Virus record (IMG/VR): IMGVR_UViG_3300050343_000182
Direction: 5' to 3' (one strand)
Source of the DNA: a virus
Length of the DNA: 64,000 nt
The notes under the pieces are model-generated. The model saw nothing but the letters and a program-made list of their open reading frames with translations, was not told where the DNA came from and searched no databases. Shown here one piece after another: positions 3,601 to 21,915 of this stretch; within the stretch, counting starts at the first letter, position 1, and each line of letters starts with the position of its first letter. The translations under genes and the position numbers were made by a program.

Positions 3601-5271
3601 AAGGCAGATGGCAAGACGAGAGCAGGTAGTATGATTGGTGACACTTGGCATGATCGTGCCAAACCTAACAAGAAATCTGCTGGTCCTAAGCAGGCATCTA
3701 CCAAGGTATATGAAAACTCCACCATCACATCGATGCATGGTCTGCTACAGAACAACCCTGCAATTCTAGGTGGCATGGCTAGAGATACTTTCAACCCTCT
3801 GATTCCTAATGTCACGGGAGGGTATTGCGACACAGGATATCCTGAGGACTCAGCATCTGAATATGAAAGAGGAAACTGGCAAGGGTATCGTGTGCAGGTG
3901 TTGGGTGGTGACTATGGTGATTTTGTAAGAAGACATCTAGTCACACGATTCGATCAGGGTGATGGAACAATCCCTCAACGTAACACATTCCTCAACAAGT
4001 CTCCTGTCTGCTTTGCTAGACAAGAGAAACCCTGGTATGTAGTTGCTGACTGTCAGTCAACAGCAGCATCAGTATTCGATGGTGGCACAAACTTCTTTAG
4101 TGCAAATACTTTCACTCAGGACTACTACCTAGATGGTAATGAGTTTGAGAATGATGCTATTGAGAATGTGAGCGTAGCAGCTTCATTGTATGCAAAGGTT
4201 AGGATTGGATTCACCTTCTACTCCACTAAGGGAATCCCTAACGAGCAGGGCAAACCAGAGGGCGGTGTTGCCAACCCTGAGAGGTGGATGTGTGCCATCA
4301 CCCTTATGGAGGTGCTACAGACGGGTATAGGATACTCTCAGGGGCAGGAGTATGATCTTACGTGGCCACCTAGGAGATACGACCAGGGAGCGACGGGCAC
4401 CCTGTCTGCATACTTCTTGCCTAATGGCACAGGTATTCAGGTTGAGGGTGCTGGTAGTGGCACCATTACACTTGACTTTGATTGGGATGATCAACCCAGC
4501 ACATCTGGTCAAGCAGTTGGTAAACTGGTTATTGAAGGTCAGACATTTGATCAGGGTAACAGCGAGACTGGCAACCAGACTCGATCCTTCTCTGTTACTG
4601 GTGGCAACAAATATCTTTGGACTATCAATGGTCAGGCTGGTCAATATGCAAATGCTAGAGAGGCATTTAACGCTGGTGACATTACATCACTTTCAAACTT
4701 TGCAAAGGATGTAATTGTACAAGGTTGGGATGATCATCCAGAATACCTTACTGATCCAGAGCTTCACCAACAAGCGGTCGGATATTTCCCTGATCCAGAT
4801 AGCGAACATGGTCTACCTGATCGTGGTTTCACTTCACTCTTCCAAGTTGATGCAGACGATGATGAGCAAGGATTTACTTGGTTAGGTGGTGAGCAAAGTG
4901 GAGATGCTGGTTTCCGAATCAGAGACAGTGGTCAGACGATTCAATGGGATGACAATGCAGCGAATGGATTTGACGTTAATGCTACAATGGTAATTGCAGA
5001 CCTAACTACTAGCGGTGGTGGACAATCTGCTGATGCTGCCTATAATGCAATGGAAGATCCAAACACATCACCTTACTACCCAGACATGAAGGGCAACTTT
5101 ACGTTACCACGTAACCTTGCTGCATTCTATGAAAGAGATAGTATGAGGAGGAGTGCGAAGGAAGCATTCTATCAAGAATCACACAACAAAAACTCACCTG
5201 TGTGGTATACTAGCTCTGACAGAGACAAACACCGTGTTAAATTCAAACTAATCATCACACAAACATCGTAA
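664..5271 (+). CDS. Large virion structural protein, 1535 aa
   Basis: Three I(R/Q)(N/D)LV(A/G)RCY repeats with Pro-rich linkers; DUF5648-like LHRFYNPSTGDHRYT; DUF4114-like WEDLIDGDDDYDDL. Confidence 0.75.
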   Translation: MSEHIRNLVARCYNVTGPIGLTPNALDGENPASEFRPAGGTSEGIPPTLTPSEVIQNLVGRCYGPTAPPNSPNPLDSLNIPERPDAPEFTPPPTPNEVIQDLVGRCYPALPPLLPPRPPDDLPDLPTIVNIDPIICFVVDELGIEIPGLKCGNPITIHWPTGPEPDGPWIGTGGSTGGGPPDDCKRVSELRIRGKVKDIGNGYWKVIGSDPEEILYCPFSKPEDDDWARCVRKTLECTFKPYLGGGWTPAKADCEGFHPRGWSANKTEVCIKNCFPERVPVYESENGNEYNYHNEIAGPSGYSLTDGDAAWWCLKDKVPGSAGGSGQNVELITGSNSGFTTSEKNPPIKTTNNEGVGNGTWVYNEGGADFWPKKNLGLSSGNGRRGDIAQHTIRYGGAVINFEVRPVYNVGSDGKADDIDSEWRVTSWTGKLPESGVEIPFTFMPQQNGNDGQRVMNITASILGSETRDRSVPLFKYKGSNPHDYFLTTNPGAPDTQGAGERDTMNGAGMVFHSILGYVFQKKPDGIEFIADKEKLWGLHRFYNPSTGDHRYTIDPQNNTIPQRVSRSRFAYRIPQKVTTDLTVRLDVEKGKAGYDNAFGYYLANSSGPQWGKIVVPSAKNAEEGGGNETNVVTISVSELQAYKGGTMGFFLLSDGAGQNSLSTNQTFNINSHSNGHGSGFRGSGIDTKENDYILFSDKEWNPEDKKDYTKWKGPNKQMWEDLIDGDDDYDDLILWHTVEFTAYPGYIYEGIQCYVFADNRPEPVMLKIDLSNPCDPQSFKKNFKDVILQRQGCGNDSPITFGEWDENHECGKCDGDYSISQGRNQTITTITGGNFKLKSFGGITGGSTGDCIRFKMRMKKNGSEIFSQRYDAGDWPTIGQDLYDGTISLSPGDKLNFKLQSIITGPPTGTITPYCALWNVDTGKFEMQWGLQLTTVSGDNPLSPMMMANTQLLSIQSAGAVVGINFQFYPSYGSQINAKADGKTRAGSMIGDTWHDRAKPNKKSAGPKQASTKVYENSTITSMHGLLQNNPAILGGMARDTFNPLIPNVTGGYCDTGYPEDSASEYERGNWQGYRVQVLGGDYGDFVRRHLVTRFDQGDGTIPQRNTFLNKSPVCFARQEKPWYVVADCQSTAASVFDGGTNFFSANTFTQDYYLDGNEFENDAIENVSVAASLYAKVRIGFTFYSTKGIPNEQGKPEGGVANPERWMCAITLMEVLQTGIGYSQGQEYDLTWPPRRYDQGATGTLSAYFLPNGTGIQVEGAGSGTITLDFDWDDQPSTSGQAVGKLVIEGQTFDQGNSETGNQTRSFSVTGGNKYLWTINGQAGQYANAREAFNAGDITSLSNFAKDVIVQGWDDHPEYLTDPELHQQAVGYFPDPDSEHGLPDRGFTSLFQVDADDDEQGFTWLGGEQSGDAGFRIRDSGQTIQWDDNAANGFDVNATMVIADLTTSGGGQSADAAYNAMEDPNTSPYYPDMKGNFTLPRNLAAFYERDSMRRSAKEAFYQESHNKNSPVWYTSSDRDKHRVKFKLIITQTS

Positions 5272-14555: not shown

Positions 14556-15505
14556 TATCCACCACCGCTGTAGGACGATCCTGAGGACTGTTGACCACTA
14601 GATGATCCAGCAGACCCATACTGATTAGTTTCAGTTGTATCCATTTGTCCTGCCTGCTCAATAGTTGCACTGCTAGTTCCTGTAGAGACGCTAACTGAAA
14701 CAACGGTGCTACCATCAGCAAGTACATCACCTTCAGAGATAGTAGGATCGGAAGATCCGAAACTTCTGGAGGTGTATTCTGCTGAAGAGGCAAATTGAAT
14801 TGAAGGTATTTGTCCCACAAGAGTCTCATACGTGGGTTTGACATTGGTAAATGCCTCTGCAACAGCTGCTGCAGTCTTCTTAATACCTGTAGCAGGATCA
14901 ACTTCATTAGAAGGAAGGTATTCAACCAATTTCTCAAATTCTTCAACAAATGCATCGATATATTGAGGTTTGAGTAGGTGTATACCTCTCTTATAGTCAT
15001 TTAATGCCAATTCATAGTCATAGTTGGACACAGGTCTAACTAACTCTTCTTTGGGGATAAGTGTGCCATCAGGACGTGAGTATTCAAAGTCTTGAGCAAC
15101 CTCAAATCCATCTCTAAGGATTACATCACCCCTTGTGCTTTTAATCTCTTGTGTTACCCAGTGGTGAATGCTTTCTACGTGTTTCGCACCGTATTTACGA
15201 ACCATATATGCATACATCTCCTGCTCAGTCATAGGCCATTCATCATATACGTTGATGATGTTATTAGTGAGTAGCACGACCCAATCATATTCAACGTTAC
15301 CATATACCCTATCAGCAATCTGATCGGGTCTTTCGTTGTGTTGAATGATGTATTTTTCAAATCCAAGAATGATATCACTTATATCATCTCGTATCTTAAT
15401 ACGACGGAATAGATTTTTTGCCTGGACGTAAGGATCATTATTACCTGTGCGATAACTAGATGTCCTTACGAATACGTCAGGTAAGTATGAGAAGTAATTT
15501 GACAT
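14552..15505 (-). CDS. gp53: Baseplate wedge protein gp53
   Basis: YFSYLPD; ERPDQIADRVYG...DWVVLLTNNI; Ser/Gly-rich tail. Confidence 0.9.
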   Translation of the reverse strand: MSNYFSYLPDVFVRTSSYRTGNNDPYVQAKNLFRRIKIRDDISDIILGFEKYIIQHNERPDQIADRVYGNVEYDWVVLLTNNIINVYDEWPMTEQEMYAYMVRKYGAKHVESIHHWVTQEIKSTRGDVILRDGFEVAQDFEYSRPDGTLIPKEELVRPVSNYDYELALNDYKRGIHLLKPQYIDAFVEEFEKLVEYLPSNEVDPATGIKKTAAAVAEAFTNVKPTYETLVGQIPSIQFASSAEYTSRSFGSSDPTISEGDVLADGSTVVSVSVSTGTSSATIEQAGQMDTTETNQYGSAGSSSGQQSSGSSYSGGGY

Positions 15506-16434
15506 TATTCGTCCTTGAAGTCCTCGCGAGTACGGTATTTGGTCTCTTGGAAAGTGAGAGACATGTTATAGACGGCAAAACCGAAGTCTTTATTTTCCAG
15601 TCCAGGCGTATGGGTGCGAATTGCAGTTGAATCGCCAAAGTCAACGCTCATGTCCTGTAACACCATTTTGTGAGGAAAGCGTAGTAGGGCATTCATATAC
15701 CCACCTGACCTTTTTCCTTTACCTAGTTTTTCATCGTCACCACTTGATTCATACCTAACAATCTCTGCCTTGAACTTGTCAGGGATGAGCAACCAGTCGT
15801 TTCCTTCTTTCGCTGGGTGCATAGATTGTCTAAGACAACTAATGATCTCATAGATCGTCTGCACATCTGCAGCACTCTTAGGCACGAAACTAAACTTAAA
15901 ACTATGAGAGATAAATCCGACACCTTTGAAGAGCATCTCTTCATAAGGGTTGAATACTTTACCTTGCGTTAGTTGGGAAAGATCGTTAGAATCAATGTTG
16001 AATCCATAAGGTGACACTTCACCCACCACCGTGTTGATTGCGGTAGCACCAATCTTAAATCCTAGAGCAGGTTTTGCTGCTTTTGCCGCCGCTGAAACAT
16101 TGTCACCGATATTATCAAGAGATCCACCACTACCAACCACGTCAGCAGCAGCACCGATTACGGCATTACCAACTGCACCAAGGTTCTTACCTTCATACTT
16201 AGCAGAATACCTCTCATTCAAACCAGGAGGGAGGTATAAGTAAAGTTGCTTATATCCTTCACCACTACCTTTATCAGATCCTTGAGATCTCTTTTTGTGT
16301 TTATAAATATTTAACTTAAGGTAGTCTACAACTTCTGTAGGATACGAGGCTTTGTCTCTTACAGACGCCCTGCTACTACTTGATGTGCCCATAGGTTTGA
16401 CCCTAGGGAATACTAACAAATTTGACTTCGGCAT
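15505..16434 (-). CDS. gp48: Baseplate tail-tube cap gp48
   Basis: LYLYLPPGL; VFNPYEEMLFKGV...HSFKFSFVPKS; LTFQETKY. Confidence 0.85.
   Translation of the reverse strand: MPKSNLLVFPRVKPMGTSSSSRASVRDKASYPTEVVDYLKLNIYKHKKRSQGSDKGSGEGYKQLYLYLPPGLNERYSAKYEGKNLGAVGNAVIGAAADVVGSGGSLDNIGDNVSAAAKAAKPALGFKIGATAINTVVGEVSPYGFNIDSNDLSQLTQGKVFNPYEEMLFKGVGFISHSFKFSFVPKSAADVQTIYEIISCLRQSMHPAKEGNDWLLIPDKFKAEIVRYESSGDDEKLGKGKRSGGYMNALLRFPHKMVLQDMSVDFGDSTAIRTHTPGLENKDFGFAVYNMSLTFQETKYRTREDFKDE
16302..16309 (+). promoter_or_regulatory. Late promoter for gp4/gp2/gp54, inside gp48
   Basis: Perfect TATAAATA. Confidence 0.65.
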
Positions 16435-16867
16435 GAGTTATTCTGGCAAATACAGACCATCAAATAGACATAAGTATAAGGGTGATCCCACTAATATTAT
16501 TTATAGGAGTTTGTGGGAAAGAAAGTTTATGGTCTGGTGCGACAAAAATGTAAATGTAATGGAGTGGGGAAGTGAAGAGATCGTTATTCCATACATCAGT
16601 CCTGTTGATGGTCGGATTCACCGCTATTTTCCCGACTTCTACGTCAGAGCACGAACTAGAAACGGAGGGACTCAGAAATTCATTATCGAAGTTAAACCGA
16701 AAGTCCAGTGTGCGCCCCCGAAGAGACCGAAGAGGCAGACTAAAAGATATATAACTGAAGTGAAAACTTACGGTGTCAACCAAGCAAAATGGAAGGCAGC
16801 AAGAGAATACTGTAAGGATCGTCGTATGGAATTCCTAATTCTCACAGAAAAAGAGTTAAACGTATGA
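16433..16867 (+). CDS. gp4: Head completion nuclease gp4
   Basis: MSYSGKYRP..YKGDPTNIIYRSLWE; RYFPDFY; IEVKP; true start 16433. Confidence 0.92.
   Translation: MSYSGKYRPSNRHKYKGDPTNIIYRSLWERKFMVWCDKNVNVMEWGSEEIVIPYISPVDGRIHRYFPDFYVRARTRNGGTQKFIIEVKPKVQCAPPKRPKRQTKRYITEVKTYGVNQAKWKAAREYCKDRRMEFLILTEKELNV
16498..16505 (-). promoter_or_regulatory. Late promoter for gp48/gp53, inside gp4
   Basis: TATTTATA on + strand = TATAAATA on - strand. Confidence 0.65.
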
Positions 16868-17334
16868 GCATCTTCACTGATGTTAAGGATCTTGCAGAAG
16901 GCAAGTCACAATCTAAAGAGTGGTATCGCTCTCAACTGCAATATGGTATGGAACCCTATGAGGGCACCTTTGCAGTTGGTGACATCATCTTTTTTGCATA
17001 TTCTGCATCAACTGAGAAATTGTCATTTTATGACAGATTCCCCATGGTGCAAATATCCGATCTGGATAAACGTAACATGCAATTCTCAGGTGGTAACTTA
17101 CATTATCTACAACCATCAGCAAGAAGGACAATCGCTGCACAGTGGTCTATGGGCAGTCCCGCATTTCCTGCCCGTTGCTATCATAAATACTTTATGTCAA
17201 ATGCTACCAACATTTACACTGTTAAACCGATTGATCTGCAGGATATGACTCCATTGCCTATCGAGCAATTCTTATTTAATGCAGCAGGTCGCTGGATCGA
17301 AGTCCCTAGCAGTCACATCTGGAGTCGAGTTTAA
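16864..17334 (+). CDS. gp2: DNA end protector gp2
   Basis: FFAYSA...YDRFPMV; GGNLHYL. Confidence 0.85.
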   Translation: MSIFTDVKDLAEGKSQSKEWYRSQLQYGMEPYEGTFAVGDIIFFAYSASTEKLSFYDRFPMVQISDLDKRNMQFSGGNLHYLQPSARRTIAAQWSMGSPAFPARCYHKYFMSNATNIYTVKPIDLQDMTPLPIEQFLFNAAGRWIEVPSSHIWSRV

Positions 17335-18086
17335 TGAGTTACAGAAATCCCAATAGTTTTCTCCGATTTGCTGATCTAGTCGCAAGTGGCGAGAAAGATA
17401 TTGCAAAGTCGAATCTATTCTCGGTGGAGATTACTCTCCCCGTAATGATGTATGCTACTGGAACACAACCCGATTTCAAAGAGCATTACGAATCTATCAA
17501 CTATTTTGCTGACAGTGTAACTATCCCTGCTAGAAGGATTAAGACACAATCAATCAAGACTGTTGGTATGCCATATGACTATGCATACGGTCAGCAGAAG
17601 CAAGAAGTCCGAATGTCCTTTATTATGACAAAGGACATGTATCATCGCCAATTCTTTGAGAATTGGATGAATATGACTGCTAATGATGCTGAAAATAGAG
17701 TATCATTCTATGATGAGTATACATCAAGCATTCAGATCCTGAAATGGGAGAATGGTGCTAACGTTGTATATAAAGGTAGAGCTAATAATGGTGCTGGAAA
17801 ACCAGTTAAATTTGAGCAGAGGATGAATAGATCCACTGCAGTCTGGCAGATGTATGGTGCATATCCATTTGACATCTCAGCAATGACTCTTAATAATGGA
17901 CCAGCAGATCTGCTGAAGATTGATGTTGACTTCAAATACGAGAGATTTAGATTTGACACAACTGCAGAGGATGTGCTGTCATTCAAAGCTAGTGCCAATG
18001 ATAAAGTCATTCGCGATTTTGATAAAGTATTCAGTCGCTTAGGATTCTCCAACGATCAGATAGATTCGTCGTTCTTTGGCACCTAA
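17334..18086 (+). CDS. Tail-tube-like baseplate protein (gp54/gp19 family)
   Basis: AKSNLFSVEI; SVTIPAR; FFENWMN; GAYPFDI; VDFKYERF. Confidence 0.75.
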   Translation: MSYRNPNSFLRFADLVASGEKDIAKSNLFSVEITLPVMMYATGTQPDFKEHYESINYFADSVTIPARRIKTQSIKTVGMPYDYAYGQQKQEVRMSFIMTKDMYHRQFFENWMNMTANDAENRVSFYDEYTSSIQILKWENGANVVYKGRANNGAGKPVKFEQRMNRSTAVWQMYGAYPFDISAMTLNNGPADLLKIDVDFKYERFRFDTTAEDVLSFKASANDKVIRDFDKVFSRLGFSNDQIDSSFFGT

Positions 18087-18111: not shown

Positions 18112-18816
18112 ATGCCTTTACCTAAGCTCGCTATCCCCGAGTATGATTTGACACTGCCTATTACTGGCACTAAAATCACATATAGACCTTTCCTCGTTAA
18201 GGAGGAAAAACTGCTGTATCTCGCTATGGAGTCGCAAGACGACAAGCAGATGATCAAGGCAGTTAAGACCATCATCAAAAACTGCACCAACCTGAAAGGT
18301 AAGGTTGAAGATCTCGCAACATTCGAGATCGAATACATCTTCCTTCGCATTCGTGCTACTGCTGTTGGTGAAGCAAGTGAATTCAAAATCACCTGCCCTG
18401 ATGATAATGAGACCCAAGTAGAAGTGATGGTCCCTCTAAATCAAGTTGAGGTTGTTGTTCCTGCAGATCATGAGAAGAAAATGCTTCTCGATGATAATGT
18501 AGGTATTGTTATGAAGTATCCGTCGATTGATGTATTCATCAGTCAAAATATGTCGGAGGATCCTAATATCGAGGATATCTTCGAGTTGGCAGCAGGGTGT
18601 ATTGAAAGTGTTTACGATAAGGAAGAGGTCTATGACAGCTTCACTAAGAAAGAAGCACTTGAATTCTTGGAAGACTTGAATTCCGAGCAGTTTGCTAAAG
18701 TCCAGAAATTCTTTGAGACTATGCCCAAACTGTCATACACACTTGAAGTTGTTAACCCCAACACTAAAGTCGTATCCGATGTTGTGCTTGAAGGACTAGC
18801 GAGTTTTTTCGCATAG
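18112..18816 (+). CDS. gp26: Baseplate hub assembly protein gp26
   Basis: MPLPKL..PEYDLTLP; YRPFLVKEEK; IRATAVGE; LEGLASFF. Confidence 0.92.
   Translation: MPLPKLAIPEYDLTLPITGTKITYRPFLVKEEKLLYLAMESQDDKQMIKAVKTIIKNCTNLKGKVEDLATFEIEYIFLRIRATAVGEASEFKITCPDDNETQVEVMVPLNQVEVVVPADHEKKMLLDDNVGIVMKYPSIDVFISQNMSEDPNIEDIFELAAGCIESVYDKEEVYDSFTKKEALEFLEDLNSEQFAKVQKFFETMPKLSYTLEVVNPNTKVVSDVVLEGLASFFA
18804..18810 (+). promoter_or_regulatory. Candidate -1 ribosomal frameshift heptamer T TTT TTC
   Basis: Last two Phe codons of gp26; the -1 frame is open to 19007. Confidence 0.7.
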
Positions 18817-19007
18817 CCCTACTGCACGATAGTCTTGAAAACTACTATAAGACAAACTTTGCCTTGATGCAGCACCACAAGTATTCGCTAACAGAATTAG
18901 AGAATATGATACCGTGGGAACGTGATGTATATGTGAATCTTCTCCTCGCACACATTGCTGAGGAAGAAAGAAGACAAAACCAAGATCAGTCACGCATGTC
19001 CCTCTAA
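18810..19007 (+). CDS. gp51: gp51-like hub assembly segment, probably the -1 extension of gp26
   Basis: RIALLHDSLENYYKTNFALMQHHKYSLTELENMIPWERDVYVNLL...; first ATG only at 18867 with no SD; absent from track. Confidence 0.85.
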   Translation, partial: RIALLHDSLENYYKTNFALMQHHKYSLTELENMIPWERDVYVNLLLAHIAEEERRQNQDQSRMSL

Positions 19008-21019
19008 TGGCAGCAATCCGCAGTTTCATAAAAATTCAACCGATAACTGGTAAGTCAGGTATCGCTCAAAACATGGATCAGGTGCGTAAGGGCATCAATC
19101 GCATGGGGAGCGTGACGGATGGCATTGCCAAGAGTTTTTATGATACTACTGAGCTTCTAAAGTTTGAGAAAGAGTATCTTACAGACACTTCCAAGACAGA
19201 AGTCACGACGATTAAGAGGAAAGATAAGAAGGATAAGACCAAGTGGACTACATCCATGCGGGATTTCCGAAGAACTTTCCGAAAAAAGAAACGTGGTAAA
19301 TTAGAAGACGAAGCAGAGAAGGGCGTAGAAGAAGGCAAAGAGGAAGGTAGGAAGGCAGTTGAGAAGCAGAAACCCAAGTTAAATATGCTTGGTGGACTTT
19401 TCAATGGTCTATTCAAAGTCTTCAAATATATGATTATATTTGGAGCATTAAACTGGTTAAGTAACCCCAAGAATGCTGAGAGTGCCGTAAAGGTATTCAA
19501 GATACTATTCACGATAGGTAAGTTTGCATTCAAAGTTACTAAATTTGGGGTTGGTCTGCTCCTTGATGGACTGACTAATGTAATTGGTAATTTTAAGGAA
19601 GAAGGTCCGATCAGACGTGCATTCCGAGGCATACTCGGAGTCGTGCAACTGATGGGTGGTCTTGCTGCGCTTAGGACAGCACAGTATCTGATCATGCCTT
19701 GGAAGTTGATGAAGGACGTTAATCGTCTGAGAATGATCTTCAACATGTCCAACCAGCAGTCTGCAGAGCAGGATGCTAACCAGAAGGTAAGAAAGAGCGG
19801 GTTTAGAGATAAGAAGACTGGAGTTATCTACTCCAAAGAAGAATACGAAGCGATGAAGAAGTCTGCCGCAAAGGCAGAACGCAAGAATCCTGGTGCTGGC
19901 AAAGCATTTGAGGATAGATTTGGCAAAGAAAGTCGTTTCTCTAAATTCAAAGGTAAAGCATCTGCAGCACGCAAGAGATTTGGTGCTGGTGCTAACAAAG
20001 CATTTGGTAAGCTCGGCGGTAAGTTAAACGTCGGCATGAGCGTCGTAGGAGGCGCTGGAAGGATCGCAGCAGGTCTTGCAAGCGGTGAGAAAGCATCCTC
20101 TGCTGTTGGTGCTGGTGTCGGTCAGGGTGTTGGTGGTTTAGTTGGCGGTATCGCTGGCACAGCACTCCTAGGACCCTTCCTAGGACCCTTTGCACCTATC
20201 GTTGGTAATGCGATCGGTAGTTTCTTAGGTGAGTGGGTAGGTAAAGAGTTAGGTCCGATCATGGAACCTATCTTTGGACCTATTGGTAAAGCATTTAAGA
20301 TGATGTTTGAGGTGGTCAAGATGACCATCGGACCTCTCTTCCAACAACTCGCTGAGCCCTTAGGGTTAATATTTGGTTTCATAGGTCAACTTGGCAAAGT
20401 CCTAATGGATGCTGCTAAGATTCTCGGAGACTTCGCTGGGTTTATCTTCGGTGGAATGATGGATGCCATTGGTGGCACCGTCCAATTTGTCGTCAATAAT
20501 GCCAAGCGTCTGATGAATCCTGCCTCTGTGGCAGGTGGTATTGCTGATGCGTTGACATTCAACCTGTTTGACTTCGACAAAGAGAATAAGAAGGCAGCAG
20601 GCGGTCCTGTACAGATGGCAGCGGGTGGTGCTCTACAGTTTGGTAGTCACCCTGACATGCTGGGCATGGTGGGTGGTCTCTACCTCAAGACCATAGTAGG
20701 ATCATTTGGTGCATTTGGATTTGTTGGTAATAAAGTAAAATCTGTCCTAGCACCTGACATTCAAAAGATTGCTGGTGGACTAGGTGTGCAGGTCAGTACT
20801 GGTGGTGGTGGCACTGCTGGTGGTGGCGTAAGTAATAGTGTACAATTCCAAGCAACTCAGACTGAAAAGAAAAAGGCTGAGGCAGTCAAGACTTTCGCCT
20901 ATAAAGAGAATATTTACAATGCGATTGATAAGGGGTTAAACAAACTACTCATCAGTGGTATCAAGATCTTCGATCCTGCATTGGCAAAGCAGATTGAAGA
21001 GAAGAAAAGCGGTGGGTAG
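19007..21019 (+). CDS. Baseplate hub/tape-measure-like protein A, first frame
   Basis: Basic coiled-coil N-terminus, Gly/Ala-rich hydrophobic repeats, KAAGG motifs; stops at GGG TAG. Confidence 0.7.
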   Translation: MAAIRSFIKIQPITGKSGIAQNMDQVRKGINRMGSVTDGIAKSFYDTTELLKFEKEYLTDTSKTEVTTIKRKDKKDKTKWTTSMRDFRRTFRKKKRGKLEDEAEKGVEEGKEEGRKAVEKQKPKLNMLGGLFNGLFKVFKYMIIFGALNWLSNPKNAESAVKVFKILFTIGKFAFKVTKFGVGLLLDGLTNVIGNFKEEGPIRRAFRGILGVVQLMGGLAALRTAQYLIMPWKLMKDVNRLRMIFNMSNQQSAEQDANQKVRKSGFRDKKTGVIYSKEEYEAMKKSAAKAERKNPGAGKAFEDRFGKESRFSKFKGKASAARKRFGAGANKAFGKLGGKLNVGMSVVGGAGRIAAGLASGEKASSAVGAGVGQGVGGLVGGIAGTALLGPFLGPFAPIVGNAIGSFLGEWVGKELGPIMEPIFGPIGKAFKMMFEVVKMTIGPLFQQLAEPLGLIFGFIGQLGKVLMDAAKILGDFAGFIFGGMMDAIGGTVQFVVNNAKRLMNPASVAGGIADALTFNLFDFDKENKKAAGGPVQMAAGGALQFGSHPDMLGMVGGLYLKTIVGSFGAFGFVGNKVKSVLAPDIQKIAGGLGVQVSTGGGGTAGGGVSNSVQFQATQTEKKKAEAVKTFAYKENIYNAIDKGLNKLLISGIKIFDPALAKQIEEKKSGG

Positions 21020-21641
21020 TGTCTTCAAAGCACACCCATACGATCAAAGATCTGGTGTTGCCCACACATATCTAAGAAATAGTCAGGGTATTGGCATGAG
21101 TATTGCTGCCATGGGCGGCGATCCAGACTATTGGACTGTCCCTGTTAAGGATGTCCAGATTGAGGCTTTAGCGAAAGAGATTGCAAATGCTGCTAAAGCG
21201 TGGGGTTGGAGTGCTCATGATATTACTGTTAAGAATGTGATGACTCACGCTGAAGCAGCGTCTGGTAAAGATGGTCAACTACCTCGTAATGATAACTATG
21301 GTCCTACTATGTGGGGTGGTGATGGCACTCGATGGGACCTCTTACGTTTGACTAAGGGTGGTGAAGACGGATCAGGTGGTAACATCTTGCGTGCTAAGGC
21401 ACGCGGGTATATGGGTGGCGACTCCACTGTTAGGGAAACAGATGGTAGTACGTCCTCCTCCTCTAGTAATTCAGGTGGTGGTGGTGGTAGTGACAACCAA
21501 ACGCAGTCACCACAATCAAAACAAGATGCTAAAGATATAAAACCCGCAAAACCCAAGACTCTTGAAGAGATGCTGGAGGCATTCAAGACAGGTTTAACAT
21601 CTGCCTTGACAAAGATCAGCACCAACGTGCCCAAGAGCTAA
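21015..21641 (+). pseudogene. Second frame of hub protein A with partial amidase-like domain
   Basis: +1 frame: AHTYLRNSQGIGMSIAAMGG...QIEALAK...THAEAA...RWDL; no credible own start. Confidence 0.65.
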
Positions 21642-21915
21642 TCCTACTAAATCTGCAGAAGAACTCCCTGGAAACCCTGTTGCTACTAATCCAACAGTCT
21701 CCGCCCCTTCTGAGATTAAGCAGCTAGGATCTGTCCGAGATAAAGCTGTCAAGGATCTTAAATCAATTGGAGACAAAGCACAACGTGACGAGGATGCAAA
21801 CTTTCTCCCCGTTATTACAGAGCGTTTAGTAATACAAAAGGTCAGACAGACGATAAATACAAAAGGGAGCACTAGCGCAGTGTATACCAAACCTTCGCCA
21901 CTTCTCACTAAGTAA
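21631..21915 (+). pseudogene. Third frame of hub protein A (C-terminus)
   Basis: PRANPTKSAEELPGNP...PVITERLVIQKVRQTIN...PLLTK*; its TAA overlaps the next ATG. Confidence 0.7.

Follow-up and report, generated by a model that had tools for sequence, protein, structure and literature searches.

A probable programmed −1 frameshift joins the gp26 and gp51 reading frames into a tail-assembly chaperone pair in an uncultured T4-like cyanophage

The reading frames usually annotated as separate gp26 and gp51 genes are, in the uncultured marine cyanophage described here, very probably two parts of one recoded gene. We put at about 0.9 the probability that a programmed −1 frameshift at the heptamer T TTT TTC, predicted from sequence features and their conservation, allows this gene to yield both a short and a long tail-assembly chaperone. 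The DNA analysed, hereafter the window, is a stretch of 64,000 nucleotides from a virus (IMG/VR record IMGVR_UViG_3300050343_000182), and at the gp26-gp51 locus the cultured phage nearest to it is Synechococcus phage S-WAM1 (69.5% nucleotide identity). RefSeq and GenBank relatives are annotated either with two genes at this position or with gp26 only.

The idea of a frameshift is not new for T4-like phages. According to two works that cite it, the PRFect paper (PMC10885494) and the phage Adele paper (PMC12846349), the study of Vladimirov, Gautam and Davidson (Virology 2022; 566:9-15) named the gp26/gp51 genes T4-like tail assembly chaperones; the same two papers cite it for polyT slip sites in T4-like TAC-N genes, and for the existence of separate short and long genes in some T4-like phages. 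On these citing accounts the proposal was already published in 2022, and our analysis is an independent rediscovery in a new uncultured cyanophage. What it adds is independent comparative support and two minor leads, an upstream Shine-Dalgarno (SD)-like element and an exception of the type seen in Vibrio phage K362.

The features of the locus, in window coordinates, are as follows.

17334-18086, + strand: tail-tube-family gene (gp54/gp19-like tube initiator; PF23849, phrog_45), directly 5' of the chaperone gene
18112-18816, + strand: gp26 in the 0 frame, the short product (TAC-N equivalent), 234 aa, PF12322
18790-18795, + strand: SD-like GAAGGA, candidate stimulator, 9-10 nt 5' of the slip site
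18804-18810, + strand: putative slippery heptamer T TTT TTC (X XXY YYZ), in register with the gp26 frame
18814-18816, + strand: 0-frame stop codon TAG, one codon 3' of the heptamer
18810-19007, + strand: −1-frame extension, the 'gp51' segment, 65 codons plus TAA, which would form the C-terminal part of a 298-aa long product (TAC-NC equivalent)
19007-21019, + strand: first tape-measure-like gene, a 670-aa ORF (phrog_90, phrog_1200, phrog_973)

The 3' end of gp26 reads AGT TTT TTC GCA TAG, and the heptamer lies at the coordinates given in an earlier, sequence-only reading of this DNA. That reading also described a −1 frame that opens after a TGA and ends in a TAA overlapping the next start codon, a first ATG that lacks an SD, and a slip product of 298 aa; all of these descriptions proved accurate. 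The −1 frame is closed upstream by TGA 18789-18791, is open from 18792, and continues for 71 codons to TAA 19005-19007, which overlaps ATG 19007-19009 of the 670-aa ORF (TAATG). Its first ATG is at 18867, with no SD-like motif in the preceding 20 nt, and the conceptual slip product measures 298 aa versus 234 aa for the unslipped protein. No promoter or terminator was found on the + strand between gp26 and the extension.

Profile searches placed these ORFs within a tail gene cluster. The gene at 17334-18086 matched tail tube families (PF23849 Phage_TTP_2, E 4.6e-10; phrog_45 tail tube, E 1.4e-39), and the homologous upstream position in relatives is annotated as baseplate-tail tube initiator or tail tube. 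gp26 is a full-length member of PF12322 (T4_baseplate), with residues 9-234 matching profile positions 2-219 of 219 (E 1.5e-69, 234.5 bits against a cut-off of 24.5), and it also matched phrog_150, 'baseplate hub'. The −1 ORF matched phrog_634, baseplate hub assembly catalyst (E 2e-31), from its fourth residue and thus well 5' of the ATG, which bears out the earlier suggestion that gp51-like residues begin before that codon. It additionally matched positions 229-276 of phrog_150, the gp26 family profile, indicating that some family members have the segment in the same polypeptide. A search of NCBIfam gave no model for gp26 or for the −1 ORF. Downstream of the extension are two long tape-measure/lysin-like ORFs. 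The 670-aa ORF matched phrog_90, phrog_1200 and phrog_973, which comprise tape measure and endolysin-type long virion proteins, and it is probably the tape measure. Two overlapping ORFs thus lie between a tail tube gene and tape-measure-like ORFs, the layout typical of G/GT.

Two other features of the neighbourhood are recorded here. Between the 670-aa and 1056-aa tape-measure-like ORFs (window positions 19007-21915) lies a 228-aa ORF (20955-21641) with a weak match to Amidase_2 (E 0.0027), followed by a stretch without a called ORF. Further upstream, a gp4-like head completion ORF (16352-16867, + strand) overlaps the start region of a divergent minus-strand ORF of 309 aa (15505-16434).

In the mechanism that we propose, most ribosomes translating gp26 would stop at TAG 18814-18816, giving the short chaperone of 234 aa. 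A minority would slip with tRNA-Phe on TTT in the P site and on TTC in the A site of T TTT TTC; both tRNAs would re-pair one base back, on TTT TTT, and decoding would restart at CGC (18810) and proceed through 65 more codons to TAA 19005-19007. The outcome would be a 298-aa long form consisting of gp26 plus the 'gp51' segment. The two forms would correspond to the TAC-N and TAC-NC, or G and GT, proteins of other long-tailed phages. By analogy with these, the shared N-terminal part would coat the tape-measure protein encoded just downstream, the rare C-terminal extension would recruit tail-tube subunits, and neither form would be retained in the virion.

We compared 89 loci: the window, 80 IMG/VR loci, S-WAM1, S-RSM4, and six further phages (Melnitz, S-CREM2, Sinorhizobium phiM7, Stenotrophomonas DLP6, the KVP40-like phi-pp2, and Aeromonas PX29). 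Together they cover Kyanoviridae, KVP40-like and Aeromonas Straboviridae, and Sinorhizobium and Stenotrophomonas phages. The sequence-only reading had proposed following six T plus C or T at gp26 ends across Kyanoviridae, and the motif was found in every locus, within that family and beyond it. TTTTTT was invariant (89/89) at the end of gp26 and always in the X XXY YYZ register, with gp26 protein identity falling to about 22-27% across the wider search; this degree of conservation is far beyond chance. The seventh base was C in 87 loci and T in two, and the run never exceeded seven T, a length reached in only two loci. Immediately before the run, the codon was AGT, TCT, GCT, AAT or GAT, such that the residue varied and the third base was always T; the mean conservation of other wobble positions in these loci is 0.54 bits. 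The last gp26 codon was GNN throughout, its residue again varying, and the −1 frame thereby retains CGN (Arg). The 0-frame stop followed the heptamer by exactly 3 nt in 86 of the 89 loci, and by 0 or 6 nt in the rest. In one locus (L080), a TAG in the −1 frame immediately precedes the T run.

Four extra phages were also inspected. Three of them (Citrobacter Ci1, Stenotrophomonas Yut2 and Vibrio D479) carry the heptamer in register; the fourth, Vibrio phage K362, lacks the six-T run and is discussed below. A distant IMG/VR locus (L096; UViG_3300035145_001269) has the variant T TTT TTA at positions 4456-4462, after which comes the familiar −1 frame resembling gp51. The six T are thus constant, and three different bases (C, T or A) occur at the seventh position.

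Patterns of selection across the 89 loci change frame at the same place. Upstream of the heptamer, information content was lowest at the wobble position of the 0 frame (0.54 bits versus 1.19 and 1.48 bits at the other codon positions), and downstream it was lowest at the wobble position of the −1 frame (0.60 bits versus 1.06 and 1.28 bits). The −1-frame periodicity is present already at offsets 13-62, before the window's first ATG. In this interval, the synonymous share of differing codons was 0.39 in the −1 frame versus 0.08 in the other two frames; upstream, the share in the 0 frame was 0.49. Codon periodicity and synonymous excess therefore follow frame 0 right up to the heptamer and frame −1 from that point on, and −1-frame conservation begins at the slip site.

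These patterns bear on the current database annotation, in which gp51 is a separate small protein. On that account translation would begin at ATG 18867, or by termination-reinitiation after the gp26 stop, and the T run would merely encode Phe-Phe. An ATG does occur within 24 nt after the slip site in 71 of the 89 loci, near enough to the gp26 stop for coupling, and K362 offers a TAATG overlap with no T6 run. However, 70 of these 71 early ATGs have no SD-like motif; homologues with a genuine SD and ATG upstream of the HDSL segment are what the sequence-only reading had named as evidence against a fusion. The early ATG codon position specifies M in 46 loci and L in 43, as would be expected of an internal hydrophobic residue. 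In ten loci, including the window, the −1 frame contains no ATG, GTG or TTG before offset 57 and yet the roughly 19 residues that precede the first ATG are conserved, in a region that shows −1 periodicity. The starts assigned by gene callers are scattered over many positions, giving gp51-like ORFs of 46-99 aa. A separate gp51 would also leave unexplained three consecutive invariant wobble bases and a fixed T before a variable residue, and it sits poorly with T4 gp51, which has the same segment in frame behind a full PF12322 domain. We regard independent initiation as very unlikely.

The frame break could also stem from faulty assembly or homopolymer sequencing, or mark a pseudogene, with the true gene being one in-frame ORF. 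Two database proteins, P0255 and P0125, do carry the gp26 C-terminus and a gp51-like segment in one frame, with in-frame junctions ...NFF-LLILSHESL and ...EFF-RISMAHEDL, respectively; they may be genuine long forms encoded in frame, or else products of homopolymer miscalling, and a scan of viral contigs for their genomic context found only the distant relative L096. Against an error in the window, the same T6 and two-frame layout occurs in 88 other distinct sequences, cultured phage genomes included, and the 120 closest database homologues are all 233-234 aa long. Moreover, independent contigs from RNA libraries (three studies) and one DNA contig match the window base for base across the site, with T6 and no indel. 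An artefact is hardly credible given these observations.

The conservation of the run would fit equally well with transcriptional slippage, in which RNA polymerase adds one U at T6 and some mRNAs consequently have gp26 and gp51 in a single frame. The site does hold a homopolymer, and rare RNA variants would be invisible in contigs. Productive bacterial transcriptional slippage usually needs runs of about 8-9, however, and six T is shorter; the run never exceeds seven T in the 89 loci, though polymerase slippage would favour longer ones. The RNA contigs show T6 only, and the annotation of phage P2 E/E+E', whose T TTT TTG occupies the same genomic position, gives the −1 shift as translational. 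We consider slippage by the polymerase quite unlikely and prefer a −1 shift by the ribosome.

Phage T4 provides the closest parallel to the proposed long product. Its gene 26 lies on the minus strand; gene 51, on the plus strand, is followed immediately by genes 27, 28 and 29 (tape measure). T4 gp26 and T4 gp51 each span PF12322 positions 1-219; because both cover the entire model, the two proteins are paralogues. Window gp26 aligns end to end with T4 gp26, which ends at the motif aligned to ...GLASFF in the window. T4 gp51 runs on in frame from this point, and its residues 198-244 align with the window −1 ORF from FF onward. A profile of the extension matched the T4 gp51 C-terminus with an E of 8.8e-6 (hhalign), and a single alignment spanning the junction covered residues 75-278 of the conceptual 298-aa fusion and residues 64-244 of T4 gp51 (E 9e-7). 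The gp51-type C-terminal segment is thus homologous but lies in the −1 frame, and its continuity with gp26 in one polypeptide would depend on the frameshift. Contiguous T4-type gp51 is present in about 1,380 phage records, one of which is labelled 'tape measure protein assembly chaperone'.

T4 and the cyanophage would accordingly share the PF12322 family, a short/long pair, the same C-terminal segment and a position before the tape-measure cluster. They differ in how the pair is encoded: in T4 the short and long proteins come from separate paralogous genes on opposite strands, an arrangement in which no frameshift is possible, whereas here a single gene would be recoded. By these alignments, the two T4 genes probably equal the one recoded cyanophage gene, with T4 gp51 as the natural in-frame equivalent of the fusion. 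The T4 virion lacks gp51, which is an essential protein, and gp26 and gp51 have been listed as hub assembly chaperones (PMC3004832). T4 also has an annotated internal in-frame product, gene 26' (L089:5803-6090), which comprises the C-terminal 95 aa of gp26; as annotated, T4 makes further chaperone-family forms by another route.

No sequence relatives were found in the PDB (the best match, at E 0.59, was unrelated), and we compared folds using an AlphaFold2 model of gp26 built from 43 homologues (pLDDT 87.8, pTM 0.83). In an exhaustive VIA-align search of 48,161 chains, the HK97 tail assembly chaperone 2ob9 ranked first (Z 6.8, rmsd 3.8, 84 residues). It was followed by 3fgx (Z 6.4) and 3klu (YqbN; Z 6.3), with 84-85 residues aligned, both of which we take to be prophage chaperone-type proteins; the following match had a Z of 4.4. 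All three matches cover only residues 1-90 of the 234 in gp26, at 6-8% identity and with Z below 8. A Foldseek search of the PDB with the same model returned nothing at E up to 0.001, with 2ob9 having the highest listed probability (0.44). The model is therefore suggestive of an HK97-type chaperone fold in the gp26 N-terminal domain, at Z values below the level that proves homology. In contrast to the HK97 gp10-type protein (2ob9), gp26 has an extra domain of about 140 residues. Heptamer conservation, the T4 gp51 alignment and synteny support the sequence-only reading in its central proposal, that gp26 and gp51 would form one recoded chaperone pair, and the modest fold match is in keeping with it.

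The locus resembles the chaperone genes of other long-tailed phages more in organization than in sequence. In phage P2, the E and E+E' products arise from a −1 shift at T TTT TTG at the same genomic position; as here, the extension is about 50-65 codons long and overlaps the start of the tape-measure gene, and the tail is contractile. The families are different, however. P2 E belongs to PF10109 (Phage_TAC_7) and E' to PF06528 (Phage_P2_GpE), and the window proteins matched neither at E up to 0.1, whereas P2's own proteins do match; gpE is also only 91 aa long, compared with 234 aa for gp26. The sequence-only reading had seen a resemblance between the extension and a segment of P2 E'. We rejected homology between the two, having obtained no BLASTP alignment and an hhalign probability of 0.45%.

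The G and GT proteins of phage lambda are reportedly a frameshifted tail assembly chaperone pair (Xu, Hendrix and Duda, Mol Cell 2004). The slippery heptamer in lambda is a different one, G GGA AAG. The likeness to lambda lies in the succession of tube gene, overlapping chaperone ORFs and tape measure, in a −1 shift at a heptamer, and in two products with a common N-terminus, one short and abundant and the other long and rare, the shift and the two forms being predicted here. The lambda proteins are much smaller, show no detectable sequence similarity to those of the window, and belong to a non-contractile tail.

We found few candidates for signals that might stimulate the slip. No structure was predicted downstream: the fold of 18811-18900 had a free energy of −8.5 kcal/mol (z +1.18), and RNAalifold predicted no conserved pairs downstream in 24 diverse loci. 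Since no stem-loop or pseudoknot is predicted, slip efficiency is not arguable from structure. Upstream, most relatives have GAGG or GGAGG 9-10 nt 5' of the heptamer, formed by the Glu-Gly codons of a LEGL motif; the window has GAAGGA. The Glu codon at this site was GAG in 63 of 83 loci, versus 33% elsewhere in gp26 and 2 of 21 at other gp26 Glu-Gly pairs, in loci that are phylogenetically non-independent. The LEGL peptide motif itself also constrains the SD-like sequence. The upstream GAGG may stimulate the slip, and, because the enrichment counts come from non-independent loci, we treat it as a hint.

In the E. coli dnaX frameshift, an SD-like stimulator lies about 10 nt upstream of a homopolymeric heptamer. 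The present locus, with GAGG or GGAGG at 9-10 nt, resembles it, and there are two differences. dnaX needs a downstream stem-loop too, of which none is predicted here, and the shift shortens the dnaX protein, whereas it would lengthen the chaperone. Marine picocyanobacterial genes are said to depend little on SD-led initiation.

Vibrio phage K362 (L095, OZ196084.1) may illustrate another arrangement. In the region L095:1730-1960, its gp26 homologue ends TCA CTT TTC AAG TAA, and the ATG of its gp51-like ORF overlaps the stop of that homologue (TAATG). With the six-T run absent from this phage, the slip device is not universal in the family. K362 may use a third route to the C-terminal module, with translational coupling yielding a small separate protein, or it may rely on a single-tRNA slip on T TTC. 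A broader reading unites these leads. It holds that the slip is driven, with no downstream structure, jointly by wobble-selected GAGG or GGAGG that pairs with the anti-SD and by the 0-frame stop nearby, and that K362-like lineages have swapped the slip for a free C-terminal domain made by stop-start coupling. We offer it tentatively and think it rather doubtful. If it is true, a dnaX-like upstream stimulator would be at work in phages of marine picocyanobacteria, and K362-type coupling would join recoding and the gene duplication of T4 as a third means of producing the pair.

A programmed −1 frameshift at T TTT TTC would account for the very small size of cyanophage 'gp51' genes, for their lack of a start and for the inconsistency of their called starts (46-99 aa). 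It would have practical consequences for annotation: in hundreds of entries for Kyanoviridae and other T4-like phages, a pair of genes stands where a single recoded one with a ribosomal-slippage join would be due. It would also tie the hub 'catalyst' gp51 and the 'hub subunit' gp26 of T4, both long puzzling, to the universal tail-chaperone system.
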